Origin: Patescibacteria group bacterium
Lineage (GTDB): Bacteria > Patescibacteriota > Patescibacteriia > Magasanikbacterales > GWA2-37-8
Length of the DNA stretch: 64,000 nucleotides
Assembly (NCBI GenBank): GCA_004321885.1
Contig: SCQK01000013.1
Span: 32,001-96,000 of the forward strand
Reading direction: 5' to 3'
Shown here: in pieces, positions 36,882 through 63,385 of the stretch
Layout: every line of letters begins with the position of its first letter
How positions within the stretch are numbered: position 1 is the stretch's first letter
Position numbers and translations under genes: made by a program
The notes under the pieces: generated by a model
What the model saw: the letters and a program-made list of their open reading frames with translations, nothing else
Databases searched by the model: none
What the model was told of the DNA's origin: nothing

Positions 36882-37349
36882 TCAAGGGGCGGCTGGCAAA
36901 TTATCCCCATGATTTCCGCTGTCATTCCCGCCCGCGAGTGGAAATCCATTTGCGTACACCCAGTATTTATACAATAAAAAATTCCAGGCCACGGCCACGG
37001 CAATATTTGCCACGCGCGCCAGGCGATAATCCAGGCCGAATTTTTCGTTAAAAAACCACATCCAGCCAATGGCGATGATGTAATTCAAAAACATTACCAC
37101 CAAAAAACGGGCCGCCTGCGTGGCGGCGCATCCGCGGGCTCCAAAAGACCAGTATTTATTCAGCAAAAAAACATAAGCCACCATAAACACCTGGTTTATG
37201 GCCACGGCCGCAACCGGACGCAGACGGGCATATTCTTTGAGCAAATAAAGCGAGCCGACGTCCAAAAACAAGGCGCTAAGCCCCACCAAAAAATATTTGG
37301 CAAACTGCGCTCGGCTGGCCCACAGTTTTTTTATAATATCTTTTATCAT
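36882..37349 (-). CDS. GtrA-family small membrane protein.
   Basis: Four TM helices; AKYFLVGLSALFLDVGSLYLL is GtrA-like. Start taken at MIKDI. Confidence 0.5.
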   Translation of the reverse strand: MIKDIIKKLWASRAQFAKYFLVGLSALFLDVGSLYLLKEYARLRPVAAVAINQVFMVAYVFLLNKYWSFGARGCAATQAARFLVVMFLNYIIAIGWMWFFNEKFGLDYRLARVANIAVAVAWNFLLYKYWVYANGFPLAGGNDSGNHGDNLPAAP

Positions 37350-39202
37350 TCTAATATCGCCTTTATCCTCCGCACGCCGGCGCTCACTGCCTCTTCTTTG
37401 ATAATGCGGAATTTTCCCAGCACACCCGTGTGCTCCACGTGCGGTCCGCCGCATATTTCGCGGCTAAAACATTGCGAGTTCTCGTGGGCTTCAACTTTGG
37501 CTTGCGAGTCGCCCACGGAATAGACCTTGACTTTTTGCCCGTAACGTGCTTCAAACAATCCAATGGCCCCCAATTTTTTGGCCTGTTCCACGCTCATTTC
37601 TTCAAAAACCACCGTATAATCGCGCTTTATGGCATAGTTGACAAGTTCTTCAATTTGTGCTTTCTGATTTTCAGTCAGCTTCTCGGGATGGCTAAAATCA
37701 AAGCGCAAACGCTCGGCCGTAATATTGCTGCCGCGCTGTGTCACATGCTCGCCCAACACCTTGCGCAGGGCGGCGTGGAGCAAATGCGTGGCCGTGTGGT
37801 ATTTTATGGACATCTCGCCGGTATCAGCCAGCCCGCCCTTGAATTTTTGCTCGGCGCCGGCCCGAGAAAGCTCCTGATGCTTTTTCATTTCCTCGTTAAA
37901 TCCTTTGATATCAACACTTAATCCTTTTTCCTCCGCCAATTCTATCGTCAGTTCAATCGGGAAGCCATAACTTTGATACAGGTCAAAAGCATCTTTCGCG
38001 GAAATTATTTTTCCGCCGTCAGTCACATTGTCATTCCCCCGACTAAGTACGGGGGAATCCAGTAACTCCTCAAATTTCGCCATTCCTCGTTCAATCGTAT
38101 TCCTAAATTTACTCTCCTCTTTTGCCATTTCGTTTATCACAAACTCGCGGTTGCGTTCCACTTCCGGATAAACATCGCTAAAAATTTTGATTGTTTCCTC
38201 GGCCATGGCCGAGGAAAAATTTTCTTTTATTCCCAGCAGTCGTCCGTGGCGCACGGCGCGGCGAATCAAACGTCTCACCACATACCCCTGGTCCACGTTG
38301 CTTGGCGCTATCCCCTTGTCATCGCCCATGATCATGGTGGCGGTACGCAAATGGTCGGCGATAACGCGCATTGATTTGGTGACTTCCGCGTTTTCCACGT
38401 ATTCGCGCCCGGAAATCTCTTCAATTTTTTGTATCAAAGGCCAAAAAGTGTCCACCTGAAAAACATCGGCAAAGCCGTTTAAGGCGACCAGCGTGCGCTC
38501 CAGACCCATGCCAGTGTCCACGTTCTTTTGTTTGAGGGGCGCGTAACTACCATCAACCAGTTTATTGTACTCCATGAAAACGTCGTTCCAAATTTCCAGC
38601 CAATTGTCTTCGTCGTTTTCCGGGTTGCTCTTTTTGGGTGGAAGCTCAGACTCCCCCATCCAATAAAACATCTCCGTGTCCGGACCGCACGGCCCGGTGG
38701 CTCCGGCCGGCCCCCACCAATTATTTTCTTTCGGTAAAAAACAAATTTTGTGCTCTGGCACGCCCGCTTCTTTCCAAATTTCGGCCGATTCTTCGTCGCG
38801 CTCGGCTGTTTTGCCTCCCTTAAACACGGACACGGCCAATTTCTTCGGGTCCAGCCCCAGCCATTTTTGGTCCGTTAAAAATTCCCAACTCCACTGTATC
38901 GCTTCCTTTTTAAAATAGTCACCCAGCGACCAGTTGCCGAGCATTTCAAAAAAAGTATCGTGGCGGTTGTCCCCCACTTCGTCAATATCCTGCAAGCGCG
39001 CGCATTTTTGCGCGCTGGCCAAACGCTTGCCCTCGGGATGTTTTTCGCCCAGTAAATACGGCACCAGCGGGTGCATGCCGGCGGTGGTAAACAAAACCGT
39101 CGGATCGTTTTCCGGAACGAGCGAGGCCGACAAAATCACCTTGTGTCCTTTACTGACAAAAAAATCCAAATATTTCTGCCGCAGTTGTTTTGATATGAGC
39201 AT
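37346..39202 (-). CDS. alaS: Alanyl-tRNA synthetase, short form (618 aa) lacking the C-terminal C-Ala domain. A family-1 repeat sits in-frame.
   Basis: N-terminal catalytic core (FTTAGMHPLVPY, GNWSLGDYFK) and editing-domain HxxxH (HTATHLLHAAL). The repeat encodes DSPVLSRGNDN. Confidence 0.9.
   Translation of the reverse strand: MLISKQLRQKYLDFFVSKGHKVILSASLVPENDPTVLFTTAGMHPLVPYLLGEKHPEGKRLASAQKCARLQDIDEVGDNRHDTFFEMLGNWSLGDYFKKEAIQWSWEFLTDQKWLGLDPKKLAVSVFKGGKTAERDEESAEIWKEAGVPEHKICFLPKENNWWGPAGATGPCGPDTEMFYWMGESELPPKKSNPENDEDNWLEIWNDVFMEYNKLVDGSYAPLKQKNVDTGMGLERTLVALNGFADVFQVDTFWPLIQKIEEISGREYVENAEVTKSMRVIADHLRTATMIMGDDKGIAPSNVDQGYVVRRLIRRAVRHGRLLGIKENFSSAMAEETIKIFSDVYPEVERNREFVINEMAKEESKFRNTIERGMAKFEELLDSPVLSRGNDNVTDGGKIISAKDAFDLYQSYGFPIELTIELAEEKGLSVDIKGFNEEMKKHQELSRAGAEQKFKGGLADTGEMSIKYHTATHLLHAALRKVLGEHVTQRGSNITAERLRFDFSHPEKLTENQKAQIEELVNYAIKRDYTVVFEEMSVEQAKKLGAIGLFEARYGQKVKVYSVGDSQAKVEAHENSQCFSREICGGPHVEHTGVLGKFRIIKEEAVSAGVRRIKAILE
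38028..38063. repeat. Family-1 palindromic repeat, copy C, in-frame inside alaS.
   Basis: TTGTCATTCCCCCGACTAAGTACGGGGGAATCCAG. Confidence 0.85.
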
Positions 39203-39219: not shown

Positions 39220-39582
39220 CTACTTTACCAAGCGATTTTTGCCCAACAAATTTAAAATTTTAACAATCTCTTTCTTTAATTTTGGTATATCGTTCTCAAC
39301 GATTTTCCAAACCAGATTAATATCAACTCCAAAATATTCGTGAATGAGGACGTCCCGCGTACCGGCAATTTTTTTCCATTCTACCTGAGGATGCTTCTTT
39401 TTAAAACCAGCTGGCAAGCTTTTGCATGCTTCACCGATTATTTCCAAGCGGCGAATGATCGCGTCTTGAATTGTGGTTGAATCAAAAAAAAATTTTGGCG
39501 TTAATTTCGCCGCATTTTTTTCTATTTCTTCAATACTGGTTAAAATATATTCAAGAAAAAATTCAGGCTGTCTTTTTGCCAT
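39220..39582 (-). CDS. HepT-like (DUF86) toxin of a MntA/HepT nucleotidyltransferase TA pair.
   Basis: Rx4HxY motif (RDVLIHEY). Overlaps the upstream MntA gene. Confidence 0.8.
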   Translation of the reverse strand: MAKRQPEFFLEYILTSIEEIEKNAAKLTPKFFFDSTTIQDAIIRRLEIIGEACKSLPAGFKKKHPQVEWKKIAGTRDVLIHEYFGVDINLVWKIVENDIPKLKKEIVKILNLLGKNRLVK

Positions 39583-39877
39583 AAATTACCTTTTGCCCGC
39601 TCAAAATCGTCTTTCGCAATAACGGGTTGATGCCGCCGTATGAAAGCACGTCTACTCGCAAACCGAGTTTGTCTTCCAGCTCTAATTTTAAACCAACCAA
39701 ATCTAATAATGATTTATTTTTTTGTAATTTTACAAGGAGATCCAAGTCGCTTTTTTTGGTCTGTTCGCCTCGGGCGAAAGACCCAAAAATCGCGGCCTTT
39801 GTCACCCCGTTTTTTTTAAGAATCGGAAAAATTTTTTTGTTTAACGTTTTTAAGGTCATAGTTGAAATTATTACCAA
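39563..39877 (-). CDS. MntA-like minimal nucleotidyltransferase (antitoxin).
   Basis: GSFARGE...DLDLLV (GSx9-13DxD) motif. Confidence 0.8.
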   Translation of the reverse strand: MVIISTMTLKTLNKKIFPILKKNGVTKAAIFGSFARGEQTKKSDLDLLVKLQKNKSLLDLVGLKLELEDKLGLRVDVLSYGGINPLLRKTILSGQKVIYGKKTA

Positions 39878-39941: not shown

Positions 39942-41000
39942 CTATTTTTTCTTCAACGTCGTTATCGGCCTACTTTGAGTAATGTATACTGTACCGCTTT
40001 CCATGGCCCATTCAATATCACAAGGGAAACCATAGTGTTGCTCAATTTTCTTGCACACCTTGGCCACTTCAATAATTTCTTTGCCGGTCAGCTTCTGCTT
40101 ACCCCCCTCTTTCTCACTCAACTCAATCCATTTGTTGGAGTCTCTCCCCTTTATAAGGGGAGAGTTAGTGAGGGGTAATTTCGCTTTCACCAACTTCTTC
40201 GTCTGTACTCCAACATTTATATCTACAATACTCATTTCGCTTTTGGAAACAATATAACTGTCGGGTGTAATCTGGCCGCTCACAATCGCTTCGCCCAATC
40301 CAAACCCGGCCTCAATAATCATCTGGTCGGGGTCTTCAGTAACCGGGTGCACAGTAAAGGCGATGCCCGAAATTTCCGACTGCACCATTTTCTGCACCAC
40401 TACCGCGACCGAAACATAATGGTCAATCAGTTTTTTTTCGTGACGATAAAAAATCGCGCGGGGGGTGAAAAGCGAAGACCAGCATTGCTTAACTTTTTCA
40501 ACAACGTTAACGCGCGTGGTGTTCAAATAGGTTTCCAGCTCCCCGGCCCAACTGGCCACGTCGCTGTCCTCGGCCGTAGCGCTGCTTCTCACCGCCACCA
40601 GGTTGTCATCCTGAACTTGTTTCAGGATCCCCGTTCGCCGTCTGTCATTCAGACCCCGCTTAGCGGGGGAGGAATCCCTCCCGCCCAACTCATCAAACGC
40701 CCCCAATATCTCATTCTCCAAATCTTTCGGCATGGGCGTGTCGTGTATCACATCGCGCAAAACATTACTCGCCTTGTCCACGCTGTTGGTGTCTTCGGGA
40801 TCCACGTCAGCCAATCGCGCCTCAATCTCTTCTTTCAATTTCGTTTCCTCAATAAATCTGTCAAACGCGCTCGCCAATACCACAAAACCCGGCGGCACAC
40901 GCAGTTTCGCTTTAGTCATCTCGCCAAGCGAAGCGCCCTTCCCGCCCGCGCTGGCCACATCTTTCTTGGAAATATCCTTAAAAAATTTTATGTGAGGCAT
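39942..41000 (-). CDS. Stand-alone PEP-synthase/PPDK N-terminal ATP-grasp (nucleotide-binding) domain protein. Carries two in-frame palindromic insertions.
   Basis: VASAGGKGASLGEM...VAVRSSATAED...CDIEWAMESGTVYITQSRP is collinear with the N-domain of the ppsA at 53413..56379 and stops at the domain boundary. Insertions sit at 40143-40177 (family 2) and 40607-40632 (family 3). Confidence 0.8.
   Translation of the reverse strand: MPHIKFFKDISKKDVASAGGKGASLGEMTKAKLRVPPGFVVLASAFDRFIEETKLKEEIEARLADVDPEDTNSVDKASNVLRDVIHDTPMPKDLENEILGAFDELGGRDSSPAKRGLNDRRRTGILKQVQDDNLVAVRSSATAEDSDVASWAGELETYLNTTRVNVVEKVKQCWSSLFTPRAIFYRHEKKLIDHYVSVAVVVQKMVQSEISGIAFTVHPVTEDPDQMIIEAGFGLGEAIVSGQITPDSYIVSKSEMSIVDINVGVQTKKLVKAKLPLTNSPLIKGRDSNKWIELSEKEGGKQKLTGKEIIEVAKVCKKIEQHYGFPCDIEWAMESGTVYITQSRPITTLKKK
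40143..40177. repeat. Family-2 palindromic repeat (TCTCCCCTTTATAAGGGGAGAGTTAGTGAGGGGT), in-frame in the ATP-grasp ORF.
   Basis: Shared with 54371-54409; a variant sits at 27169-27220; a related core lies at 34730-34765. Confidence 0.8.
40607..40632. repeat. Family-3 palindromic repeat (CATCCTGAACTTGTTTCAGGATCCCC), in-frame in the ATP-grasp ORF.
   Basis: Identical to 62591-62616 and near-identical to 63041-63066. Confidence 0.85.
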
Positions 41001-41036
41001 ATTTCAAAAGCAGTCGCTTTGGGCGACTGCCACGAA

Positions 41037-41459
41037 CTATTTAATATATTCACCGATGATCTTCATAAACTTTTTTATATCTCCACTTTCCGCTTTTAGC
41101 TCGGTCAAAAATCGTTTCATGTCAATGTCTTCGTACTTGTGCACTATCCTGTTGCGCAAACCGACTATCGGAGCCAGTTTTAGAGCAAACGCCATGGGCA
41201 AAATTTTATTCTGGCCAAGCGTGATAAATGTGCTTTGATAATCTTCGGGCGCCTGCAAATTTTTCTCGGCGATAATATGCGTGTTGATATCTACCATACA
41301 GTCCACAATGAGCTGAAACAAGCGCTCAATCGCGTGCAATTTCGTCTCATCCTGAATTAAATCAAAAACATCGTCTTCTAAAAGCGCGTCCAACTCTTTC
41401 TGATACCCGCCGATGTCGGTGAGTTTGTTGTAAATAAGCGTTTTGTTGGTCATACACAC
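41037..41459 (-). CDS. HepT-like (DUF86) toxin, second copy.
   Basis: RNRIVHKY (Rx4HxY). Confidence 0.75.
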   Translation of the reverse strand: MCMTNKTLIYNKLTDIGGYQKELDALLEDDVFDLIQDETKLHAIERLFQLIVDCMVDINTHIIAEKNLQAPEDYQSTFITLGQNKILPMAFALKLAPIVGLRNRIVHKYEDIDMKRFLTELKAESGDIKKFMKIIGEYIK

Positions 41460-41462
41460 AAT

Positions 41463-41864
41463 TTAAGCCAAAAATTTTTGAAGTTGTTTATGCCTTAATT
41501 CATAAAGCGGTTTCGCCTCAACATATCTCTTAAACGCGTACATGCGAAATTTGGCAAACTCGCCGACTTTATCCTCGTATAGAGGAACTCCGTCTCGCCC
41601 TATTTGCAGCATAAGTAACGGCGACGCTCCGCGCGCGTTCACCACTTCCACGTCGCCGCGGCCAAATATATGGCAAAAATTTTCCCGCAACCCGGCTTCT
41701 TCATAATAAGAAATTGGCCCTTTTGTTTTGACGGCAATATCAATGTCGCTGTATTTATGCGTTTTTCCGCGCGCGGCCGAACCAAATAATACGACGAAAT
41801 CAAGACCAGCTTGTTTAGCCGCCTTTTTTATCGCTGTCTTTGTTGTTGAATTTATGACTTTCAT
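41463..41864 (-). CDS. MntA-like nucleotidyltransferase antitoxin, second copy.
   Basis: GSAARGKTHKYSDIDIAV. Confidence 0.8.
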   Translation of the reverse strand: MKVINSTTKTAIKKAAKQAGLDFVVLFGSAARGKTHKYSDIDIAVKTKGPISYYEEAGLRENFCHIFGRGDVEVVNARGASPLLMLQIGRDGVPLYEDKVGEFAKFRMYAFKRYVEAKPLYELRHKQLQKFLA

Positions 41865-41908
41865 GATAAAAGTATAGCATTTTTGCAGTATTTTGCAAAT
41901 TTTTGTCT

Positions 41909-42229
41909 TTAATCAATTTTTCTCACAATTCCCTTCTCCGCGTCCACCTCCACCATATCGCCATTTTTAATCTTCCACAAAATTTCTTCCGAAAGACCGA
42001 CAATCGCCGGTTTGTTATTTTCGCGCGCCACAATAGCCGCGTGAGAAGTTACCCCGCCATGCACTGCCAAAATCGCCTTCACTTTTTTAGCCAGCGCCGC
42101 GTTTGGTTTGACTTGATTCAATAACACAATATTCTCTTCCGTGCAATGAGCAAATTGGTCAGTATGATTAATAATACAAACCAGCCCGCTCGCCTTGCCG
42201 GGACAAGCAGAAATTCCTTTGAATTGCAT
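41909..42229 (-). CDS. Stand-alone PEP-utilizing-enzyme mobile (phosphohistidine swivel) domain protein.
   Basis: ACPGKASGLVCII...HGGVTSHAAIVARENNKPAIVG...GDMVEVDAEKGIVRKID; 106 aa. Confidence 0.8.
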   Translation of the reverse strand: MQFKGISACPGKASGLVCIINHTDQFAHCTEENIVLLNQVKPNAALAKKVKAILAVHGGVTSHAAIVARENNKPAIVGLSEEILWKIKNGDMVEVDAEKGIVRKID

Positions 42230-42492
42230 AAATTATAAATAATGGCTTTGTTCTGCCATTATTTTACTCTTACTCTTGACAAAAGTCAAAAAATGTGCTA
42301 TATTGTTTTGTTGTGGTTTATTGGAAAATTGCGCTTTATTGCGCTATTTTCCGGCTATAACGTGAGTGTGTTGTTTTTTGAAAATTTGAGGTTTCTTTGG
42401 CCAGAAGTTGAATGCGTAATGCGAATATCTTTTGTTCGTAATGCGCAGTCAACTTCCACGCCCCACCGATGGGGCACACCAAGGAGAGGAAG

Positions 42493-43140
42493 ATGAAGAC
42501 CACGGTGCTGTTCACGAGGCACGAGGACCACAAAGACCAGGTCCTCCTGCCGGACGCGGTCGAGAGAGCGCGCATGCGCGGTCTGCGCCTGCGTGAGAAG
42601 GACTACAAGATCGACCGGGTCAAGGGCTCGCCCCTGCCCCGCGCCGATGCCACCGCCACCGAGATGATGACCGGCTACGGCCAGACCACGGACATCGAGC
42701 GCGAGGCGCGCCTCGGCGACTTCAAATCCGATCCAAGGACGCCGAAGGAGGCGGTGAAGGAGCTCAAGGCGAACGCGGTGGCCAAGCACGGGGATGACTC
42801 CGACTCCAACTTGGCCAAGGAGCTCATCAACACCCCCGCCCTGCACGACCTCCTCTTCGCCCGCGCGAAGGAAGGCGCCGAGGCCCTGCTGGAGATGGCC
42901 GCCGCCAACCCGGGCAAGACCATCCTGGCCGTGAGCCACGGCGTGGCCCGCATGGAGATCGTCCTGCGCTACCTGCGGGGCGTCCGCGACACCGCGCTCC
43001 TGGACATCGTCCCGGAGCTCATCGACCGCGGCGAGGTCATCAAGCTGACCTTCGAGGTCTCGGAAGAGTGGGACGACCTCGCCGAGACGCACCCGGCGCG
43101 GGCCGAGTTCGTCTCGGCCGAGCCCCTCCCGCTCCTCTAA
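42493..43140 (+). CDS. Histidine phosphatase superfamily (PGAM/SixA-like) protein on a GC-rich foreign cassette.
   Basis: RHE and SHG motifs (VLFTRHEDH, AVSHGVA). Local GC is about 65% against about 40% in the flanks. RBS AAGGAGAGG lies just upstream. Confidence 0.65.
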   Translation: MKTTVLFTRHEDHKDQVLLPDAVERARMRGLRLREKDYKIDRVKGSPLPRADATATEMMTGYGQTTDIEREARLGDFKSDPRTPKEAVKELKANAVAKHGDDSDSNLAKELINTPALHDLLFARAKEGAEALLEMAAANPGKTILAVSHGVARMEIVLRYLRGVRDTALLDIVPELIDRGEVIKLTFEVSEEWDDLAETHPARAEFVSAEPLPLL

Positions 43141-43261
43141 CCCCCCATCTCGCCCGCGTTCCGCGGGCAACTCCAAACACAACTCACTGACACGGCGGTA
43201 CGCATCGCGCGACCGCCCAACTCTCAATGCTTTTCAACGAAAAACATTGAGCGTTACAAAA

Positions 43262-43293
43262 AATCCTTCGCGTTTACGAAGGATTTTTTGTTT
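43262..43293 (+). terminator. Rho-independent terminator after the histidine phosphatase (TCCTTCG-CGTTTA-CGAAGGA plus a T-run).
   Basis: Read directly. Confidence 0.55.
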
Positions 43294-43319
43294 CTCAATT
43301 TTAATACCAGCGCGCTATT

Positions 43320-44828
43320 TCAAATTCTCCTCACCACCCCTTTATACCCATCCACCTCCAACCAATCCCCATCTTTCACCACCTCGCGCACAAACCTGGT
43401 TTGTATTACTCCCGGAATTTTGGCTTCCCGCGCAAGCGTGGCCGGGTGCGTCGTAATACCATGCCCGCCATCGCAAACCAAACCTGCCGCTTTCATAATA
43501 GCTGTGGAGAAACTGGGTACCACTTGAATACTGACGATAATATCTCCCTTCTGCACTTTATCGCATTCATCGGGATGCAAAATTACACGCGCTGGCCCCT
43601 TGGCGACTCCGGGCGAAACCGGCATACCGGTAAACTCTTTAGCGTTCTTATCTACTTTACAGAAAAGATTAAACAATCTTTCGGCCTGACTTCTCTCAAC
43701 TATCTTCATTGGCTGTCCGCGCCGACAATACCACAACATCAGTTCTATCCTTTCGTTAATATCAAAAGATAATTCTTTTCCTTTGATCAAAGCCGTTCTT
43801 ATCTCTTCTATTTTTAAGTGCCTGACCTGATTCAGACTCAAATAGAATCTGCGGCCAATCTCTTTCAAAACGCTATCAAAATAATACAAAGATTCGGAAA
43901 CGTAGCGCTTGCGCAATTCTTTCAAGTAAGCCACATGGCGCATGGAATTGAAAGAATCTTGTTCTTGCTTGCTGAAGTTCAATCTGGCCAAATATCTCTT
44001 TCTTTCGCTTTCATTTTTAGCCAAGTTACCGACCAATTTCTCATATTCCTTCCTCACATTGAGTATGAGATAGCCGGTCAAACGTTGAACTATCGATCTA
44101 AAATCCAAAACGGAGTCTTCGTAATCACGCGTTACCCAAAAATAATTTCTTTCATGCTTCCTTATAAGATTACTAAGTTTAGAATCTTTTTTAATGGCGT
44201 CTATATCTTTGGTTGTGACCAGAGAAACCCAATGTTTATCGGCTAAAATCCTTAACGCCAATTCAAACAACGCCTTCAATTCAACAGTCGCCACCATGGC
44301 GCTGGGTTCGCGCGTTAAAATGTCCAAAACTACCGCGGCCTTCCTTTTGTCCGCCACTTTGCCTTCCACCATACGTAGCAGGTCGGCGATATAATGGTCT
44401 TCCGTAATCCAAATCCATCCGTACCGAGCGTACACCTCTTTGTATTTTTTTTCATAATCAGCGAAAAATTCGTACAATGTCTGATTGCTTATTCTTTCTA
44501 AATTAGAATTGCCTGCTTTCTTGGCAAAAGCCACTAAACGCGCACCGTAGATATGCTGTTCTTTAATGAACTTGCCGACCAATTTTGAATCATAATGAAT
44601 TTTATCGGACATGTCGCGAGCAACCTCTTCGTAACCCTTCCTACCAATAAACATGTAGTGTACGTTATGCGTGCAAAAATAAAGTACCTCTCCGAGGGCA
44701 AAGCCGACGGCACTTTTCATCTCATTGCAGACAGCCTCCATTGAAAAATAATTAGGAAACGGACTGACGCGTTGGCGTTGAGACTTAAATACCCAGTGGT
44801 CGATATCCGTTGAAAATTTAACTGGCAT
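43320..44828 (-). CDS. Two-domain protein: about 400-aa N-domain of unknown function plus a C-terminal PEP-utilizers swivel domain (paralog 1 of 4).
   Basis: C-terminus: GMPVSPGVAKGPARVIL...DGGHGITTHPATLAREAKIPGV...GDWLEVDGYKGVVRRI. Confidence 0.7.
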   Translation of the reverse strand: MPVKFSTDIDHWVFKSQRQRVSPFPNYFSMEAVCNEMKSAVGFALGEVLYFCTHNVHYMFIGRKGYEEVARDMSDKIHYDSKLVGKFIKEQHIYGARLVAFAKKAGNSNLERISNQTLYEFFADYEKKYKEVYARYGWIWITEDHYIADLLRMVEGKVADKRKAAVVLDILTREPSAMVATVELKALFELALRILADKHWVSLVTTKDIDAIKKDSKLSNLIRKHERNYFWVTRDYEDSVLDFRSIVQRLTGYLILNVRKEYEKLVGNLAKNESERKRYLARLNFSKQEQDSFNSMRHVAYLKELRKRYVSESLYYFDSVLKEIGRRFYLSLNQVRHLKIEEIRTALIKGKELSFDINERIELMLWYCRRGQPMKIVERSQAERLFNLFCKVDKNAKEFTGMPVSPGVAKGPARVILHPDECDKVQKGDIIVSIQVVPSFSTAIMKAAGLVCDGGHGITTHPATLAREAKIPGVIQTRFVREVVKDGDWLEVDGYKGVVRRI

Positions 44829-44858: not shown

Positions 44859-46082
44859 TTAAATTTTTCTCACAATCCCTTTCTCCGCGTCCACCTCCAC
44901 CATATCGCCGTCTTTTAAAACCTTAGTCGCGATTTTCGTGCCGATAATACAAGGTATACCTAACTCACGGCTGACGATGGCAGCATGCGCGGTTAACCCT
45001 CCCTCGTCGGTCACGATAGCGGCCGCCTTTTTGACCGCCGTTATCAACGACGGCGTGGTCATGGATGAAACTAAAATATCACCCTTCTGCATCTTGACCT
45101 GATCTTCCCGCGTGATAACAATTTTGACCTTGCCGCGCACCTTTCCCTTGGATGCCACGAAGCCAATAATTTTATCCACCACCGCTGTTTTGTCTTCTTC
45201 AAAATAAAGCTTAAAATAATTCTGCGCCTTTTCGCCGCTTAAAATTTTTAATTTTCTCCGGCTGATCAGCAATATATAAAATTGTTGGCGGCGTTTCATT
45301 TCGCTTTCGGGCATTTTCTTGCCACCCAAATAATCGCGCAAGCTGACCGGATCGTACCAATCCAATTCAGCCAATTCTTTTTCGTTGTTGATGACCTTTC
45401 GCAAATGATCTAATAGCTGATCGTAAAGATAAGACGACACTCTTTCCCCCATTTCGTAAAAGTAAGTGAACCATGATAAAATTTCCGCAAGCTCTTTTTC
45501 TTTGGCGGTTAATTTTAGCCGTCGTGCAAGATCCTCTCTTTTTCTAATCAATCGCGGACTAGAACAATGCAATTGGTTTAATAGCCCGACAACCGCTTTC
45601 GGCACTGATAAAGTTGATAAGACATCGTCCAGCTCGCGCGCCGATACTTTCGCCGCCAGTAATTTTTTCAGCCGCTGTGCAACAGACTGCTCACCCCAGT
45701 AGCTATAGACAATAGCGCCACGCCCATAAGCGTGATATTTCATGAACAAACTGATGTAACTCCTCAAATCTTTGCGGGTCAAATTTTTATTCTCGTACTT
45801 TCTGCCCCAGTTATAACCTTGGATTAGCAACTTAACTATAATGTCACCCAAACGAGAAATATTTTTCCCTTTAAATTCTCGCAGAATAATTTTCTGCTGT
45901 CTTTTTTTGTCCGCGGGGTCAAAGTATAACGAGGTAACTCTGCCGCGGCCGACAATCGGACTTCTGGCTATTTTCGCCCGCCCAAATTTACCAATGCTCT
46001 GCGCATAAGCAATGGTGCGAAATCCGCGATCAAGCAAAGTATTTTCACGTGTTAATTGTTTGACGTATTTGACTTTGGACAT
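44859..46082 (-). CDS. Unknown N-domain plus C-terminal PEP-utilizers swivel domain (paralog 2).
   Basis: C-terminus: KGKVRGKVKIV...DEGGLTAHAAIVSRELGIPCIIG...GDMVEVDAEKGIVRKI. Confidence 0.7.
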   Translation of the reverse strand: MSKVKYVKQLTRENTLLDRGFRTIAYAQSIGKFGRAKIARSPIVGRGRVTSLYFDPADKKRQQKIILREFKGKNISRLGDIIVKLLIQGYNWGRKYENKNLTRKDLRSYISLFMKYHAYGRGAIVYSYWGEQSVAQRLKKLLAAKVSARELDDVLSTLSVPKAVVGLLNQLHCSSPRLIRKREDLARRLKLTAKEKELAEILSWFTYFYEMGERVSSYLYDQLLDHLRKVINNEKELAELDWYDPVSLRDYLGGKKMPESEMKRRQQFYILLISRRKLKILSGEKAQNYFKLYFEEDKTAVVDKIIGFVASKGKVRGKVKIVITREDQVKMQKGDILVSSMTTPSLITAVKKAAAIVTDEGGLTAHAAIVSRELGIPCIIGTKIATKVLKDGDMVEVDAEKGIVRKI

Positions 46083-46239: not shown

Positions 46240-46869
46240 CTATTTCGGCCATCTTTGCACCCAAATCTCTTTGTCTGCCACGTATTTATAATAATTCGTC
46301 CAATCCTTTTTATTTTGAACTTTTCTGCTGACAACGCCGGTGATGTAATCAGCTACCTGCAGCAAATTATTTGATTTTGAACGCTGTTGTTTTAATTTTT
46401 TTATAACTTTCTTCCCGTTCGTATTTAACCGAACGCGCAAATATTTGGCAAGACGGCTGCGAAAATCCGGCGAACCTGACTTATCAAGTATTACTGTGGC
46501 GTTATTCAAATGCGGAAGCGCGTTGTTAAAAACCATCTGGCAGGCGTATTTGTAAAACGATTCTTTGGTGATAAAACCTGGCCCCCACAATTTATTTGGG
46601 TCTTTGTCTATCACGACTGCGAAGTATATAAAGCGATACGGCTGGATGGCCGATAAAAATCTTTCTTTTATCTTATCCGAATTAAAAGAAAAATGAAATT
46701 CAAAATCGGACGGCAAATCAAGCTCTTTTCGCAATAAATTAATCCGTTGGTCGCAAGATAGGGCGTCTTCATTGTCATCAAAAATAACCAAAGAAATTAT
46801 AAAATATCTGCTGGAACCGGATTCTGTTTTACGGCCGGTATCGCCGGCTTCATCTATAAAGACGAGCAT
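46240..46869 (-). CDS. DUF3800-like protein.
   Basis: N-terminal FIDEAGDTG hallmark (an IDESG-type start); 209 aa. Embedded in the paralog operon. Confidence 0.5.
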   Translation of the reverse strand: MLVFIDEAGDTGRKTESGSSRYFIISLVIFDDNEDALSCDQRINLLRKELDLPSDFEFHFSFNSDKIKERFLSAIQPYRFIYFAVVIDKDPNKLWGPGFITKESFYKYACQMVFNNALPHLNNATVILDKSGSPDFRSRLAKYLRVRLNTNGKKVIKKLKQQRSKSNNLLQVADYITGVVSRKVQNKKDWTNYYKYVADKEIWVQRWPK

Positions 46870-46879
46870 AACTGTTAAT

Positions 46880-48361
46880 TCAAATTTTCTTCACAATCCC
46901 CTTTGTCGCATCCACTTCCACCATGTCGCCGTCTCTGAAAACCTTAGTGGCGATTTTCGTGCCAATCACGCAGGGAATACCGAGTTCGCGCGAGACGATA
47001 GCCGCATGGCAGACAATGCCGCCCATATCAGTAACTATCGCCGACGCCTTTTTCATGGCCGCCACGATTTCCGGTATGGTCATTTCCGAAACCAACACAT
47101 TTCCACTTACCATTTTTTTCATATCCTCTATGGTATTTACAATCGTTACTTTCCCTTTGGCCGCGCCCGGAACCGCGGTTTGCCCCCGCAGTTCTTGAAC
47201 TGATAAATCCACTTCTTCCTCACGAGCCATATTCATTTTTGACATTACGTATCTCGCTTCTTCGCCAACAATAAACTTGGATCCATTGGCGTCCACATAT
47301 AGTAAACTATATTTCCAACGTTCATTTAATTCATCCGCGTCGCACTGCCCGCTTCTAATCGCAGAAGGAACTTCTTGTGGCAAAAAATATCGCGCTTGAC
47401 GAATTGAAATAAGCAATCTTTTTGCTACTTCCCGCAGTATTTTATCAAGCGCATAAAATCCTAAAAATTGGTGCTCTTTGCTCCATGCCTTTTGATAAAC
47501 AAGGTCTTTGGTAACGCGAAATAAATGCTTGTGTTTTTCATCAATTTTTAAATTATCAAACCAGGCGTTTTGTTTTTTTTCAGCTTCAAAAAACTGATTT
47601 TTCTGACGCAAAATTTCTTGCTCAATATCGGTCCCAGCTTCTATAATCTCCTGAATATGCTTTACCACATCCTTCTCTGTCCAAGTCGGCCCTTCACAGG
47701 CAAAGGGCAAAAAACAATACTTCCGCGCATGCGCCGCAATTTTTTCCTCCCCAACGGATAATTGAATTTTGCCTTCCACAACTTCCTTCGCCAGCTCATA
47801 AAGTTCCAAATGTTCCTGTGTACCCAAAGCCGGCTTTGTCAGCGTGAGTAAATCAGCCAAAACAAGAACGGCATCTATATCAGGATTAAACTTTTTTAAA
47901 TAGTTCAATAAATATATTCCTAATTGTTCAAACGGAATTTCCAAAAGCCAACTCGGAACACGATATAAGTGTAATTCCGTCTGTAACGGCAACAGTTGTT
48001 CGTAAATTCGCGCGAGTTCTTCGTTGGATAACTTTGATAAATCACTCTCAATAATTTTCCAGGCATAATTTCTAAGCTGCGGTAAAATTTTATCTGATTT
48101 TACATGCATATCATCAATGAGCCGGGGATTTTCCACAATTGCTTCTAAAGTTTTTTTACCGGCCACTATCCATTCATTGCGAATATAGAATAACTTTGTC
48201 GCGCCGTTTTCATACAAAGGAAGGCTGTGTGCCACATCGGCAAGCCCCAGCTTGCTCAATTCGCTTGTCATGGCGCGAAAAGGCGGCTCCAATGTAATGG
48301 GAGGATACTGATACAACTTCTCAATCATTATCCATTCTTTTCTTAACAATTCTTCATTCAT
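46880..48361 (-). CDS. Unknown N-domain plus C-terminal PEP-utilizers swivel domain (paralog 3).
   Basis: C-terminus: AVPGAAKGKVTIV...DMGGIVCHAAIVSRELGIPCVIG...GDMVEVDATKGIVKKI. Confidence 0.7.
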   Translation of the reverse strand: MNEELLRKEWIMIEKLYQYPPITLEPPFRAMTSELSKLGLADVAHSLPLYENGATKLFYIRNEWIVAGKKTLEAIVENPRLIDDMHVKSDKILPQLRNYAWKIIESDLSKLSNEELARIYEQLLPLQTELHLYRVPSWLLEIPFEQLGIYLLNYLKKFNPDIDAVLVLADLLTLTKPALGTQEHLELYELAKEVVEGKIQLSVGEEKIAAHARKYCFLPFACEGPTWTEKDVVKHIQEIIEAGTDIEQEILRQKNQFFEAEKKQNAWFDNLKIDEKHKHLFRVTKDLVYQKAWSKEHQFLGFYALDKILREVAKRLLISIRQARYFLPQEVPSAIRSGQCDADELNERWKYSLLYVDANGSKFIVGEEARYVMSKMNMAREEEVDLSVQELRGQTAVPGAAKGKVTIVNTIEDMKKMVSGNVLVSEMTIPEIVAAMKKASAIVTDMGGIVCHAAIVSRELGIPCVIGTKIATKVFRDGDMVEVDATKGIVKKI

Positions 48362-49836
48362 ATTTTTCTCACAACCCCACTTGTCGCGTCAACCTTCACC
48401 ATATCGCCGTCTTTGAGTACGGAAGTGATTTTTTTCACGCCCACCACGCAGGGAATTTTAAATTCGCGCGCCACAATGGCCGCATGGCAAGTGATGCCGC
48501 CGTCCTCCGTCACGATAGCCGAGGCGCGTTTCATAGCCGGCAACATCGCCGGATAAGTCGTGAGCGCCAACATAATATCTCCTTTTTCCACCTTATCCGC
48601 GTCTGTTAACGATAGAACAACTTTTACTTTGCCTGAAACAAAACCCGGATACGCGGTGGCGCCCTTAAATCCGTCTTCAACATTTAATTTTATTTCTTCA
48701 ATATCCAAGCCGGCTATAATCGCGTCGGCCTCTTTGCCGTAATAATACTTTGTTCCGCTTTCAGTCGCTTCAATCACGCAATGCTTAATTCTCTCATTTA
48801 TTAAATCAATGTCCAATTTGTCACGCAATAGAGCGTTTTCCATTTCGTCCGTCAAAAAATGATTCGCTTGTTTATGCGATATATTCAATCGCTTGGCAAT
48901 TTCTTTGGTGAGCATGTCCAAAACATAGTGCCCATGCCAAATACAATATTTTCTGAGATCCTTAAGCCAAATAATCTCGCGGGCGATGGCGAACAATCGC
49001 GCGAGCTGCGGGGGCAAGTTGATTTCGGAAATTACTTTATTTTGTTCCGCGATGAGTTTCTCGTAGCGTTCTTTTTCTTCTTTGAGCATTTGGTCCGGGT
49101 CAGTTACGCGAGGCAGGGCTTCCTTAACCTGCTCTTCATAATATTTCAAATCATAAGCCGGCCCGATATAGCCGTATGGCGTCCAGCGCCATTTTTGCCA
49201 ATGCTTTGTTATTAATTCTTTGTACTGGATTCCCGCTTTCGCGGGAATGACAACGGCCTTAAGCAACTCCAAAAAATCCAATTGCTCCAACTGGACAAAA
49301 TTCTGTTTAGCCGGAGTGGTAAGCAGAACAAAATATTCTATTGTTTTTACCGGATCATCTATGCCTAAACTTTTTAAATGTTCTCCTAATTTTTGCTTTA
49401 AATACTCCGAAAAAATCATGCCGTCGCTGTCCACAAACCAAGTGGTGGCGATTGATGGAAGATGACCTTGCTCGGTAAGCCATAAAAGCGTTTTGTAGTA
49501 ATCAAAAAGCTCGGCATTGTTTAGCGCGCCAAAATCTTTTCCCACCAAACTTTGAGCGTAATTAAAATAATCCCAATTTAATTTTTCGGTTCGCGCATGC
49601 AATTCCTCTGCCCACTGCGGCTCGGTAATAATTTTTTCCGCAATCCATTTCACCGTCGTTTCTATTACTTCAACCGGCACATACGCCGTATCCCTGTCGT
49701 TTCTATAATCTTGATACCAAACAGTAAATAATTGTTTGCCATTCTTTTTTGGAATATGCGCAAAAATCCCTTGGGGGTAATAGCCCAGCATGTTAAAATT
49801 CACGTCGCGGATATCAAAATTTATTCGCCATTTCAT
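48358..49836 (-). CDS. Unknown N-domain plus C-terminal PEP-utilizers swivel domain (paralog 4).
   Basis: C-terminus: AYPGFVSGKVKVV...EDGGITCHAAIVAREFKIPCVVG...GDMVKVDATSGVVRKI. Confidence 0.7.
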   Translation of the reverse strand: MKWRINFDIRDVNFNMLGYYPQGIFAHIPKKNGKQLFTVWYQDYRNDRDTAYVPVEVIETTVKWIAEKIITEPQWAEELHARTEKLNWDYFNYAQSLVGKDFGALNNAELFDYYKTLLWLTEQGHLPSIATTWFVDSDGMIFSEYLKQKLGEHLKSLGIDDPVKTIEYFVLLTTPAKQNFVQLEQLDFLELLKAVVIPAKAGIQYKELITKHWQKWRWTPYGYIGPAYDLKYYEEQVKEALPRVTDPDQMLKEEKERYEKLIAEQNKVISEINLPPQLARLFAIAREIIWLKDLRKYCIWHGHYVLDMLTKEIAKRLNISHKQANHFLTDEMENALLRDKLDIDLINERIKHCVIEATESGTKYYYGKEADAIIAGLDIEEIKLNVEDGFKGATAYPGFVSGKVKVVLSLTDADKVEKGDIMLALTTYPAMLPAMKRASAIVTEDGGITCHAAIVAREFKIPCVVGVKKITSVLKDGDMVKVDATSGVVRKI

Positions 49837-49838
49837 AT

Positions 49839-50882
49839 TTATCCGAAGTAGTTTTTCACCGCGAATTCAAATTGCTGGACAAATAATTCCTTAAAGTAGC
49901 GCAAACTATTTTGTTCGTAAAATAAAAGCAACGCCTTCTTGTATTCGGCGCTATCAACGCTTCTAAACGACAAAGGACACCAGTCATGCGCCAAGAGAAT
50001 CGCATTGCCCAAAATTCTGCCTGTTCTTTTATTTCCATCCACGAACGGCTGAATATATGAAATCATCGCCGCCGCGATTATGGCCTTGATTATCGGTTGC
50101 TCCTCTGTATTTACCGCGGAAATCATTTTTTCCATCGCTTCTTTTATTTGGAATTGGTTGTCTATCGGCTTATAATTTGTGCCGACAATACCCACTACAA
50201 TCTTCCTGTAATCATCCGTCACGCCCAAATCTTTTATCAACAAAGAATGCAGGGCGCGTATCAGCGCGGCGGTCGGTTTCTTGAATTTATTTTTATTTTT
50301 CAAAACAAAATCAAGCGCGTATTTATGATTCAATATCATCGTCGCCTCCGCTTTAGTGTGCCCTTTCGCCTCTTTCATTTCCTTTAACAATACTTCCGTA
50401 TCCAATAACGAATAAGTATTACCTTCAAGTTCAGATGATTTCCAGCTCAATTCAATCAAAAGTCGCTCTAATTCTTTTTGAGCGACATCGACCGCCATTT
50501 TGTCTGTTTTTTGTTGATACGCCTTGTTGCGCTTTTCTAAATCTTTTAATTCTTCCTTGTTAAACAAGCCGGATAAATGGTCAAAAATTTCCCAGTCAAA
50601 TCTGTATTTTATTTTTCTTTCATCCACCGGAACCGCAAAATAATCCGCGGCATTAACATAACGCAGAAGCGGAGTTTTAATTTTTGACGAATATGTGACA
50701 CTGCGAGCCTTGCCTCTCTTTTCTATCTGTCCGATCGAGAGTAAAATTTCCAATTCACGCAGGATTGTCGGTTTTGACAATCTGTCAAATTTACCCGCTA
50801 ATCCTTTAATAAGTTCGGCCGCTGTTACCTGTTCATTAGCCTGTACAAATTCCAAAATCGCTTTTTGACGTTTTGTAAGCAT
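49839..50882 (-). CDS. Fic/Doc-family protein with an N-terminal wHTH. The Fic motif has Gln in place of the catalytic His.
   Basis: IQPFVDGNKRTGRILGN matches HPFx(D/E)GN(G/K)R except for H to Q. First gene of the paralog operon. Confidence 0.7.
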   Translation of the reverse strand: MLTKRQKAILEFVQANEQVTAAELIKGLAGKFDRLSKPTILRELEILLSIGQIEKRGKARSVTYSSKIKTPLLRYVNAADYFAVPVDERKIKYRFDWEIFDHLSGLFNKEELKDLEKRNKAYQQKTDKMAVDVAQKELERLLIELSWKSSELEGNTYSLLDTEVLLKEMKEAKGHTKAEATMILNHKYALDFVLKNKNKFKKPTAALIRALHSLLIKDLGVTDDYRKIVVGIVGTNYKPIDNQFQIKEAMEKMISAVNTEEQPIIKAIIAAAMISYIQPFVDGNKRTGRILGNAILLAHDWCPLSFRSVDSAEYKKALLLFYEQNSLRYFKELFVQQFEFAVKNYFG

Positions 50883-51004: not shown

Positions 51005-52186
51005 TCAAGCAATCACTCCCCCGCCCAAACATTCACCTTTAAGATAAAATACCGCGAACTGACCCGGGGTGACGGCGCGTTGGGGGTGAGTGAAAGTAAC
51101 TAAAGGGAGGGAAACAGTGCATCTCTGCAAAGGTTGACGGTGACGCAGGCGCACCTGGCATTTTAGCGGGAAATTGGGTGTGTTTCCACTTATCCAATTT
51201 ACGTCTTTGACCCTTGCTTCCATACTGTACAGCATATCGCTTTTCTCGTCGCCGACAATCAGTTCGTTCTTTTTTATATTCTTACCGACAACAAAGAGAG
51301 GCAACGCGCTGGATTCCCCCGTACTTAGTCGGGGGAATGACAAACTGATACGTTGGCCGATGGTGTAAAACGCCAGGCCATCGTGCTGGCCCACGACTTT
51401 ACCCCTCTCTCGCCACCGCCGCGAGGCGGGGCCCCGCCGTGGCGGTGGCTCTCCCCTTGTAAAGGGGAGAGAGAGCACTATGTTCCCGGGTTTGAATTTT
51501 ATCTTTTTCATCAAAAATTCTTTCATCGGCACTTCGCCGATGAAACAAATGCCCATGCTTTCTTCTTTTTCCGCCGTGGGCAAGCCGAATTTTTTTGCCA
51601 GGGCGCGCACCTGTGGTTTGGCATACTCACCGATGGGAAACAAAACGTGGCGCAGTTGTGCTTGAGATAATTGATTCAAAAAATATGTTTGGTCTTTATT
51701 GAGATCTTTTGACTGCAAGAGGTGCAGAACCCCACCCCCCTTTCGTTCCCCCTTTATTAAGGGAGGAAGAAACGCGTAGTGTCCAGTCGCTAATTTATCA
51801 AACCCTAACGCACGGGCTTTATCCAGCCAGGCGCCAAACTTGATGAATTTATTGCACAAAACATCCGGATTGGGCGTGCGGCCGGCCTTGTACTCGCTAT
51901 ACATGTAATCCAAAACATCGCGCTTGTATTTGCGCGTAAAATCCAGCTTCAAAAGTTTAATGCCCAGTTTGGCGGCCACGCGCAAGGCGTCGCGATAATC
52001 GCCGGTCCAACAGCGCGATCCCACCCCCCCTTCGCCCCCCCCTCTGGCATGAGGGGATATTTTCTCATCATAGTTCACCATGAACGCGCCGCTTACGTTA
52101 TATCCTTGCTTAACCAAAAGAGCGGCGGCAACGGACGAATCCACGCCGCCGGACATGGCGACTAAAATTTTTTGCTTTTTTTTCAT
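51005..52186 (-). CDS. mnmA: tRNA-specific 2-thiouridylase MnmA with several in-frame palindromic insertions.
   Basis: ILVAMSGGVDSSVAA PP-loop. Gly/Pro/Arg-rich insertions at 51310-51345 (family 1), about 51410-51478, about 51740-51770 and about 52020-52060. Confidence 0.85.
   Translation of the reverse strand: MKKKQKILVAMSGGVDSSVAAALLVKQGYNVSGAFMVNYDEKISPHARGGGEGGVGSRCWTGDYRDALRVAAKLGIKLLKLDFTRKYKRDVLDYMYSEYKAGRTPNPDVLCNKFIKFGAWLDKARALGFDKLATGHYAFLPPLIKGERKGGGVLHLLQSKDLNKDQTYFLNQLSQAQLRHVLFPIGEYAKPQVRALAKKFGLPTAEKEESMGICFIGEVPMKEFLMKKIKFKPGNIVLSLPFTRGEPPPRRGPASRRWRERGKVVGQHDGLAFYTIGQRISLSFPRLSTGESSALPLFVVGKNIKKNELIVGDEKSDMLYSMEARVKDVNWISGNTPNFPLKCQVRLRHRQPLQRCTVSLPLVTFTHPQRAVTPGQFAVFYLKGECLGGGVIA
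51310..51345. repeat. Family-1 palindromic repeat, copy D, in-frame inside mnmA (encodes LSFPRLSTGESS).
   Basis: The reverse complement equals copy C. Confidence 0.85.
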
Positions 52187-61990: not shown

Positions 61991-63385
61991 ATGCTACAAC
62001 TTTTCAATACCCTGATCAGAAAAACAGAAGAATTCGTCCCGCTCAAAAAAGGCCGCGCAGGCCTCTACACCTGCGGCCCCACTGTCTACAACTACGCGCA
62101 CATCGGCAATTTGCGCGCTTATGTTTTTGAAGATGTGCTCAAGCGAGTTTTGCTCTACGACAAATACAAGGTGAAGCACGTGATGAATATCACCGACGTT
62201 GGGCATTTGACCGATGACGGCGACGCGGGCGAAGACAAGATGGAAAAAGGGGCGCGACGCGAGGGCAAGACCGCCTGGGAAATCGCGAAATTTTACGAAA
62301 ATGCTTTTAAGAACGACTTGAAAAATTTGAACATTTTGCCGGCCGACAAATATCCGCGCGCCACCGAGCACATCAAAAACCAAATCGCTTTGATAAAAAA
62401 ATTAGAGGCGAAAGGATTTACTTACCGCACGAGCGATGGCGTGTATTTTGACACTTCAAAGTTGTCGGATTACGGCAAGCTGGCGCTTTTGGGCAAACAG
62501 GAATTGATGGCCGGAGCGCGGGTGGAGATGGGAGAAAAAAAACACGCGACTGATTTCGCGCTGTGGAAGTTGAGCGCCTCGCAGGGCGGTCATCCTGAAC
62601 TTGTTTCAGGATCCCCAAAACGCCAAATGGAATGGCCTTCGCCCTGGGGCATCGGTTTTCCTGGCTGGCATATAGAGTGCTCGGCCATGTCAGTAAAATA
62701 TTTGGGCCAGCCGTTTGATATCCACTGCGGCGGAGTTGACCATATTCCGGTGCATCACACCAACGAAATAGCGCAAAGCGAAGCGGCCGGCGGCAAACCC
62801 CTGGCGAATTATTGGTTGCACGGAGAGTTTTTGATAACCGGTACGGAAAAAATGGCCAAATCGGAAAACAACTTTTTGACTTTGGCGAAATTGAAAGAAA
62901 AAGGCATCTCTCCCCTGGCCTATCGTTATTTCCTGTTGCAGACGCATTACCGCAAACAACTGAACTTTTCCTGGGAGGCGCTCTCCGCCGCGCAAAAGGG
63001 CTTGGAGCATTTGTATGACTTAATCCCTGTGTCCAATAGTCATCCTGAACTTGTTTCAGGATCTCCGCTCGCTCAACGATTCCAAGAAGCCATCAACAAC
63101 GACCTGGACACTCCGGCCGCTCTGGCTCTGGTCTGGGATGCCCTGCGCGCCAAAACAATTTCCAAAAAACAACTTTTGGATTTTGACAAGGTTCTCGGTC
63201 TTGGTCTGAACAAAGTGAAAAAAGAAAAAATCAAAATCCCGGCCGAAGTTCAGAAGCTGATCAAGGAGCGCGAAACCGCCCGCACGGCCAAGAACTGGGC
63301 CGAATCCGACCGTTTGCGCCGTGAAATAGAGGCCGCCGGTTTTACGGTTGAAGACACGCCGGATGGGCAGAAGGTGAGGAAATAA
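61991..63385 (+). CDS. cysS: Cysteinyl-tRNA synthetase with two in-frame family-3 palindromic insertions.
   Basis: [17 protein letters not shown] (HIGH) and KMAKSENN (KMSKS). The insertions, at 62591-62616 and 63041-63066, each encode HPELVSGSP. Confidence 0.9.
62591..62616. repeat. Family-3 palindromic repeat, in-frame in cysS.
   Basis: CATCCTGAACTTGTTTCAGGATCCCC; the hairpin is ATCCTGAA-cttgt-TTCAGGAT. Confidence 0.85.
63041..63066. repeat. Family-3 palindromic repeat, second cysS copy.
   Basis: CATCCTGAACTTGTTTCAGGATCTCC. Confidence 0.85.

Follow-up and report, generated by a model that had tools for sequence, protein, structure and literature searches.

A probable multi-component RPH-like dikinase with one ATP-grasp protein and an array of acceptor paralogs in a Patescibacteria genome

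The minus strand of contig SCQK01000013.1 (GCA_004321885.1, Patescibacteria group bacterium) encodes, within the 64,000-nt window analysed here, a stand-alone ATP-grasp protein of 352 amino acids (aa; 39942-41000, all positions being window positions) and, upstream of it, four paralogs that combine an N-terminal domain, here termed X, with a C-terminal phosphohistidine swivel domain. The genes between them include one for a swivel-only protein of 106 aa (41909-42229, minus strand), called the small swivel below, and a MntA/HepT toxin-antitoxin (TA) pair. This locus probably constitutes a multi-component, RPH-like small-molecule dikinase in the two-component format of HpeHI, CreHI and PpsAB, in which a single ATP-grasp protein would be shared by the four paralogs as acceptors.

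An earlier, sequence-only reading had described 39942-41000 and 41909-42229 as minus-strand open reading frames (ORFs) that carry just the nucleotide-binding domain and just the swivel domain of a phosphoenolpyruvate (PEP) synthase-type enzyme, separated by MntA/HepT, with a complete ppsA elsewhere in the window. Pfam assignments bear out each of these points. Its claim of four X-swivel paralogs downstream holds in that all four end in a swivel domain, but in the direction of transcription they lie upstream. Of its two explanations, the splitting of a two-domain gene by the TA module fails for the reasons given below; action of the ATP-grasp protein in trans on the X-swivel paralogs, which would follow the analogy with two-component dikinases, is largely supported by synteny, natural fusions and homology to these enzymes.

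The ATP-grasp protein and its proposed acceptor paralogs

The 352-aa protein contains PPDK_N as its sole Pfam domain (E 2.8e-94, profile positions 2-314 of 328). The best 120 of its 7979 homologues are 312-413 aa long, 64-76% identical to it and carry PF01326 only; most of these 120 are labelled Candidatus Magasanikbacteria. The protein aligns over its full length with the crystal structure of HpeI (9GOJ, E 4e-51). Its top sequence matches are the N-termini of PEP synthases, but alignment to the N-terminus of the resident PpsA, which the sequence-only reading had proposed, gives only 34% identity, and in a neighbour-joining (NJ) tree the ATP-grasp clade is separate from genuine PpsA. The NCBIfam PEP synthase model scores it at 337 bits against a cut-off of 598, and the RPH model NF041857 at 263 bits against a cut-off of 999, the paralogs reaching at most 75 bits with the latter. 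The ORF is full-length relative to its orthologues, shares their ends and keeps every family-invariant residue, and its pairwise dN/dS does not exceed 0.08, a rough value since dS is saturated.

Two in-frame insertions in surface loops (40590-40690 and 40125-40195) account for the length of 352 aa, many orthologues having only 324 aa. Both are made of short dispersed repeats, with exact or near-exact matches of 24-34 nt elsewhere in the window (62589-62616, 63039-63072, 54372-54402 and 51449-51472), that is, within ppsA, within mnmA and near 62.6-63.1 kb. A peptide in the 492-aa paralog, IPAKAGIQ (at about 49200), resembles a translated palindromic element; its DNA has no convincing second copy within the window.

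The four paralogs are encoded at 48358-49836 (paralog 1, 492 aa), 46880-48361 (paralog 2, 493 aa), 44859-46082 (paralog 3, 407 aa, with a shorter X domain) and 43320-44828 (paralog 4, 502 aa), all on the minus strand, and Pfam recognises a C-terminal swivel domain in each. A profile built from 35 X-swivel proteins aligns in the PDB with residues 525-865 of RPH (E 4.6e-28), and thereby extends about 230 residues into the rifampin-binding domain. The AF2 model of paralog 1 is of high confidence (pLDDT 92.3, pTM 0.90), and Foldseek puts RPH-Lm in the first six places among its PDB matches (E 5e-13 to 6e-11), with TM scores of up to 0.58 despite differing domain poses. The profile alignment and the Foldseek matches identify X as an RPH-type substrate-binding domain. 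The RPH-type NCBIfam models extend over a larger part of the X domain (residues 277-490) than any other model does. The His loops of three paralogs, TEDGGITCH, TDMGGIVCH and TDEGGLTAH, follow the pattern T/S-x-x-G-G-x-x-x-H. PF02896 is absent from the ATP-grasp protein, the small swivel and the four paralogs, and is seen only in the product of 53413-56379.

The same association recurs in related genomes. Among 60 species-level loci from GTDB genomes (71 loci in all, including L071), about 45 contain a complete stand-alone ATP-grasp gene, spread across Patescibacteria in genomes labelled Magasanik-, Kuenen-, Uhr-, Parcu-, Berkel- and Saccharibacteria. Arrays of one to six swivel-terminated paralogs accompany these genes, upstream in Magasanikbacteria and downstream in the other groups. 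In ten loci (L001, L020, L021, L022, L027, L031, L032, L045, L050 and L071) an X-swivel gene lies -4 to 66 nt 5' of the ATP-grasp gene. The X-swivel genes of the window are co-oriented with the ATP-grasp gene, with the genes for a phosphatase and the small swivel and the TA cassette intervening.

Natural fusions join the two components directly. ATP-grasp is fused to swivel units in nine loci: L061 encodes an 842-aa protein in RPH order; L046, L053 and L057 encode proteins of 706-828 aa with one C-terminal swivel; and L047, L055 and L059 encode proteins of 1130-1165 aa with two swivel domains. In L058 (9986-15244), a 1752-aa protein carries ATP-grasp followed by three swivel domains, and in L050 (10001-20092) a single ORF of 3363 aa, free of stops and Ns, joins ATP-grasp to seven intact swivel His loops. 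Independent database representatives add PPDK_N with six swivels (P0249, 2648 aa), PPDK_N with three swivels (P0252, 1649 aa) and an internal PPDK_N (P0250). In the Rosetta-stone sense, such fusions argue strongly that one nucleotide-binding domain works with several acceptor modules.

Two further arrangements were observed among the related loci. A Magasanikbacteria locus (L062, 7380-10630) has decayed; it contains a frameshifted X-swivel gene (pieces of 167 and 129 aa), an inserted gene for a 378-aa ATPase and a 5'-truncated ATP-grasp gene (193 aa). In L002 (8526-9842) and L003 (111-1427), a 438-aa protein is encoded directly 5' of the ATP-grasp gene, in the position that an X-swivel or small swivel gene occupies in other genomes; it gave no Pfam hit and no match to the X-domain or swivel profiles.

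In the proposed mechanism, the 352-aa protein would be the common nucleotide-binding component, and the four upstream paralogs would be acceptors, each with an RPH-type substrate-binding domain and its own phosphohistidine swivel. On the model of RPH and HpeHI, the ATP-grasp protein would bind ATP and charge the swivel His of an acceptor in a transient complex. The charged swivel would then swing back to its own substrate-binding domain and phosphorylate the bound small molecule, with AMP and Pi as the other products. Substrate specificity would differ from paralog to paralog. The small swivel, a conserved paralog of the acceptor swivel domain, could serve further downstream as a carrier, a buffer or a regulator. 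Phosphorylation in trans, the dikinase chemistry and the diversity of substrates are thus what we infer from these components, and any part played by the small swivel or the neighbouring phosphatase is likewise presumptive.

Several observations weigh against this reading. In this genome, the ATP-grasp gene is cut off from the acceptor genes by a TA cassette with a terminator-like hairpin at its end, and a scan found no promoter-like site 5' of the ATP-grasp gene, so that its expression here is uncertain. The His loop of paralog 4, CDGGHGITTH, is altered by a one-residue insertion. About 12 related loci have no swivel-containing gene in the retrieved flanks, several of these contigs being short, and the NJ trees carry no support values. 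Because their scores fall far below the curated cut-offs, the ATP-grasp protein and the paralogs are relatives rather than members of the RPH and PEP synthase equivalogs.

The swivel-only protein and rival explanations

The PEP-utilizers mobile domain (PF00391) is the sole Pfam domain of the 106-aa small swivel (E 2.1e-16). Its family consists of proteins of 104-110 aa that are 53-67% identical, contain PF00391 only and share one start position (MQFKG...); the gene of the window has a stop codon two codons 5' of its ATG. The catalytic His63 is invariant across the family within GG(I/V)TSH, and the loop of the window protein, AVHGGVTSH, keeps the His with Ala at the T/S position. The family has invariants of its own, C18, H28, C29 and K41-P42, plus an ENNKPA stretch, that are missing from the X-swivel and PpsA swivels. 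H57, which is nearly invariant in the family, is likewise missing from those swivel domains. Together, C18, H28, C29 and H57 might make up a metal or redox site.

The AF2 model of the small swivel (pLDDT 94.2, pTM 0.86) is a complete autonomous domain, which in structure resembles the His domain of RPH most closely (TM 0.85, rmsd 2.4 Å). The protein is 34-44% identical to the X-swivel C-termini of the window, as compared with 30% to the swivel of the resident PpsA in the alignment suggested by the sequence-only reading, and it is monophyletic in an NJ tree of 142 swivel domains. Like the ATP-grasp ORF, the small swivel ORF is full-length relative to its orthologues, with the same ends and all invariant residues kept; its pairwise dN/dS values of about 0.1-0.4 are rough, dS being saturated. 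A profile search of 1.84 billion representatives returned three clusters of 106-107 aa as well as polyproteins with several swivels.

The small swivel gene lies directly 5' of the ATP-grasp gene in five other lineages (L005/6, L007/8/11, L009/10/25, L034 and L069), with spacers of -8, 16, 17 and 63 nt and without a TA cassette. Of the 45 species loci whose ATP-grasp gene is complete and stands alone, about 40 have no small swivel gene adjoining it, the flanks searched being at most 10 kb and some contigs short. This absence speaks for an accessory role and against that of an obligate carrier. The window groups with L007, which has a small swivel, and its closest relative by identity, L071 (76%), has none. 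The most plausible origin of the small swivel is an X-swivel paralog beside the ATP-grasp gene whose X domain disappeared near the base of the Magasanikbacteria clade; some lineages would afterwards have kept the remaining gene and others lost it. Its conservation, tight linkage to the ATP-grasp gene, intact catalytic loop and new invariant Cys/His set point to a function connected with the ATP-grasp protein, by which it is most likely also charged.

The arrangement of the two ORFs had suggested that a TA module was inserted into a PpsA- or RPH-like two-domain gene and split it, since the ATP-grasp ORF ends and the swivel ORF begins at domain boundaries and the TA pair lies in between. This is almost certainly wrong. 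On the coding strand the order is small swivel, MntA/HepT, ATP-grasp, and the swivel gene is thus 5' of the ATP-grasp gene; in PpsA and RPH the domains follow one another the other way round, so that a TA module inserted into such a two-domain gene could not give rise to the order seen in the window. The TA-free relatives in the five lineages named above carry the two ORFs separately, both proteins share their ends with their orthologues, and the small swivel is nearest to X-swivel C-termini rather than to PpsA. No swivel-ATP-grasp fusion occurs among the 10 swivel-first proteins scanned in the top 150 profile matches, and none of the 71 loci has one fused swivel/ATP-grasp gene at that position. 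The target-site remnants expected around the cassette borders were not found: comparison with orthologous spacers reveals neither a target-site duplication nor shared spacer sequence at the borders of the first cassette, and no coding remnants flank it. In a tblastn search of 41800-43400 for remnants of an X domain or ATP-grasp, only the swivel itself matched. The possibility that both ORFs are decaying pieces of a dikinase pseudogene, to which the interrupting cassette and the demonstrable decay of the related locus L062 lend some colour, is very improbable; both ORFs are full-length with all invariant residues kept, dN is well below dS, and the small swivel is modelled with high AF2 confidence.

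The remaining alternatives concern the role of the small swivel. In an obligate three-part relay, the ATP-grasp protein would charge only the free small swivel, which would then diffuse as an HPr-like phosphocarrier and hand its phosphate on to the four paralogs, either at their substrate-binding domains or at their swivels. The tight linkage of its gene to the ATP-grasp gene (spacers of -8 to 63 nt) is consistent with such a relay, as are its conservation, its invariant His and its predicted folding as an autonomous, complete domain. HpeH alone can move phosphate between substrates via its own His (PMC12167813), which implies that the acceptor site takes phospho-His chemistry independently of ATP-grasp. 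This relay is nevertheless improbable, since most stand-alone ATP-grasp loci have no adjoining small swivel, including L071, in which an X-swivel gene abuts the ATP-grasp gene; each acceptor owns a catalytic His, albeit in an altered loop in paralog 4; HpeHI, PpsAB and RPH function without a separate carrier; and no X-only (swivel-less) acceptor was found within the window. That the swivel-only protein is a free phosphohistidine carrier in an ATP-driven relay to several substrate-binding proteins, resembling the phosphotransferase system, with its Cys/His set and the phosphatase as possible means of control, is similarly not probable.

An unlikely but conceivable alternative is that the small swivel acts as a regulator or decoy, competing for the ATP-grasp protein or sensing redox state or metal through its Cys and His residues, and thereby tuning flux. 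The residues C18, H28, C29 and H57, absent from X-swivel and PpsA swivels, would suit such a role, as would a gene that is dispensable in many lineages and is encoded with the ATP-grasp protein rather than with the acceptors. The idea is purely inferential, however, and the full catalytic His loop has been kept, suggesting that the small swivel is still phosphorylated. A multi-component dikinase, in which the ATP-grasp protein charges the acceptors themselves, therefore remains the preferred interpretation of the locus.

MntA/HepT cassettes and neighbouring genes

The genes of the locus follow one another in the direction of transcription as Fic, two X-swivel genes, DUF3800, two X-swivel genes, the divergent phosphatase gene, small swivel, MntA, HepT, ATP-grasp, a second MntA/HepT pair and alanyl-tRNA synthetase (37346-39202, minus strand). 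The first cassette encodes a MntA-type nucleotidyltransferase as antitoxin (41463-41864, minus strand; Pfam Polbeta/NTP_transf_2) and a HepT toxin, a HEPN RNase with the Rx4HxY motif RNRIVHKY (41037-41459, minus strand; Pfam HepT-like, E 3e-24). The second, unrelated pair, directly 3' of the ATP-grasp gene on the same strand, consists of a nucleotidyltransferase (39563-39877) and a HepT (39220-39582) with the same Pfam assignments. The translations contain the motifs FGSAARG...DIDIAV and RNRIVHKY or RDVLIHEY, as befits MntA/HepT (type VII) TA systems, in which a minimal nucleotidyltransferase gene (GS...DxD) is closely followed by a HEPN gene with Rx4HxY. Identity between the two MntA sequences is 36% across an alignment of 81 residues, and neither pair is a copy of the other.

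Within 10 kb of the ATP-grasp gene, none of the 70 loci searched has a homologue of either pair, and L071, the closest relative, lacks both. From the comparison of these loci, the first cassette is a lineage-specific insertion in the short spacer between the small swivel and ATP-grasp genes that split no gene. A promoter-like site (41899-41871) heads it, and a hairpin between the HepT stop and the ATP-grasp start (41005-41031, minus strand) follows it, with a 9-bp stem, then UUUU, and a folding energy of -18.2 kcal/mol (z -4.6; none of 200 shuffles as stable); a simple terminator scan did not flag this hairpin. Because the cassette brings its own promoter-like site and terminator-like hairpin, its insertion may have uncoupled the expression of the small swivel from that of the ATP-grasp protein. 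Nothing indicates a functional link between MntA/HepT and the dikinase genes, and the module has no counterpart in the related loci.

A histidine phosphatase gene lies between paralog 4 and the small swivel on the opposite strand (42469-43140, plus strand; His_Phos_1, E 6.7e-8, with RH and SHG motifs). It may act on the products of the system or on phospho-His proteins, the sole hint being a match to the NCBIfam SixA model (E 0.006) that is far below threshold. Homologues with matching placement and orientation are present in L005/6, L015/16, L026 and L067 (L005 8836-9600, L015 9042-9698, L026 8143-8811 and L067 14500-15165, all on the minus strand), and HAD phosphatases are encoded inside the arrays of L002, L005 and L009. 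These conserved His_Phos_1 neighbours and the HAD phosphatases mark a phosphatase as a recurrent partner of the dikinase cluster. The idea that the GC-rich stretch at 42-43 kb marks a foreign phosphatase gene was dropped, as the gene is conserved at that position in relatives.

The array is headed by a gene for a Fic-domain protein with an N-terminal winged-helix-like region (49839-50882, minus strand; Pfam), and in L002, L015/16, L018 and L030 the array likewise starts with a Fic homologue. A DUF3800 gene (46240-46869, minus strand; Pfam) lies within the paralog array. Genes of a defence-like or mobile character thus stud the cluster, namely the second MntA/HepT pair, DUF3800 (similar to PADLOC PDC-M04A) and Fic (SoFic-like). 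PADLOC, which has no model for the dikinase components, matched none of them; resemblance to candidate defence proteins is confined to Fic, DUF3800 and MntA. The genes zf_Tbcl_2 and mnmA, which are 3' of the ATP-grasp gene in L007 and L071, precede the Fic gene in the window, and this difference in placement indicates local rearrangement.

The resident ppsA (53413-56379, minus strand) encodes a three-domain PEP synthase of 988 aa (Pfam PPDK_N, swivel and PEP-utilizers_C), which the NCBIfam PEP synthase model scores at 1160 bits against the cut-off of 598. The model spans residues 2-796. The C-terminal extension of about 190 aa contains a hydrophobic helix (IIKIAAATKLLLIFGVVGLLSTLGGYA) and then an unassigned domain, which is unusual for a cytosolic enzyme.

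Significance and comparison with known systems

Three features appear new here: in Patescibacteria, arrays of acceptor paralogs that would share one ATP-grasp protein; a swivel-only protein that is conserved and marked by invariant Cys and His residues of its own; and, at the locus, a conserved divergent histidine phosphatase. The literature searched contains no description of the one-donor/many-acceptor format, its spread in Patescibacteria, the polyproteins, the swivel-only family or the phosphatase and Fic partners. Many small-genome Patescibacteria spend 8-12 kb on one ATP-grasp protein and up to seven RPH-like acceptor modules, at times joined in one polyprotein of over 3000 aa. Such a large share of a tiny genome implies an important and diversified capacity for small-molecule phosphorylation, with the inactivation of antibiotics or toxins, scavenging and the modification of host metabolites as candidate uses. 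The orphan swivel protein offers a clean test case for swivel domains as free phosphocarriers. The core mechanism has precedent; it is the scale and diversification in minimal-genome bacteria, together with the orphan swivel, that merit experimental follow-up. The locus also holds a more general lesson, in that apparent "split genes" beside a mobile cassette need a check of gene order and orthologous loci before disruption is inferred.

The order of genes, X-swivel followed by ATP-grasp, has a parallel in the domain order of glucan, water dikinase (GWD and PWD), in which a substrate-binding module and a phosphohistidine domain precede a C-terminal nucleotide-binding domain. GWD, however, is one eukaryotic or algal polypeptide with starch-binding modules, and the X domain showed no homology to CBM45. 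PEP synthase and pyruvate phosphate dikinase share homologous ATP-grasp and swivel domains with the window system, which lacks their PEP/pyruvate-binding TIM-barrel domain and, without this PEP-binding domain, is not a PEP synthase.

RPH (rifampin phosphotransferase; 5FBS, 5FBT, 5FBU and 5HV1; PMC4844700) contains the same three domain types. In RPH they form a single chain of ATP-grasp, rifampin-binding and His domains, whereas the ATP-grasp component of the window is a separate protein encoded after the acceptors. The window proteins reach at most 263 bits with the NCBIfam RPH models, whose cut-offs are at least 999, and scores so far below the cut-offs indicate that the system is not an RPH equivalog.

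The closest likeness in format is to HpeHI, CreHI and PpsAB (phenylphosphate synthase), which combine a separate ATP-grasp protein of about 340 aa (HpeI, PpsB) with an RPH-type substrate-binding/swivel partner (HpeH, PpsA); the 352-aa protein of the window is the equivalent of HpeI and PpsB. Together with the X-swivel genes it reproduces that arrangement exactly, and on architecture the system falls within the two-component branch of the RPH-like small-molecule dikinases. HpeH, CreH and PpsA are about 45% alike among themselves. The acceptors of the window are likened to HpeH and PpsA by domain architecture, the sequence likeness of the X domain being to RPH. HpeHI is an experimentally characterised member of this group, in which HpeI is the counterpart of RPH's ATP-grasp domain, and HpeH that of its substrate-binding and swivel domains, with an essential conserved His; CreHI and PpsAB share its format (PMC12167813). 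The window departs from the 1:1 ratio of these systems, with one ATP-grasp protein for four acceptors (one to six in relatives and two to seven in fusions). Its hosts are reduced-genome Patescibacteria rather than degraders of aromatic compounds, no carboxylase or catabolic genes are nearby in the window, and the locus adds a conserved swivel-only protein and a divergent histidine phosphatase. A two-component dikinase subfamily that was experimentally defined only recently, in degraders of aromatic compounds, would thus be extended to a format of "one donor, many acceptors".

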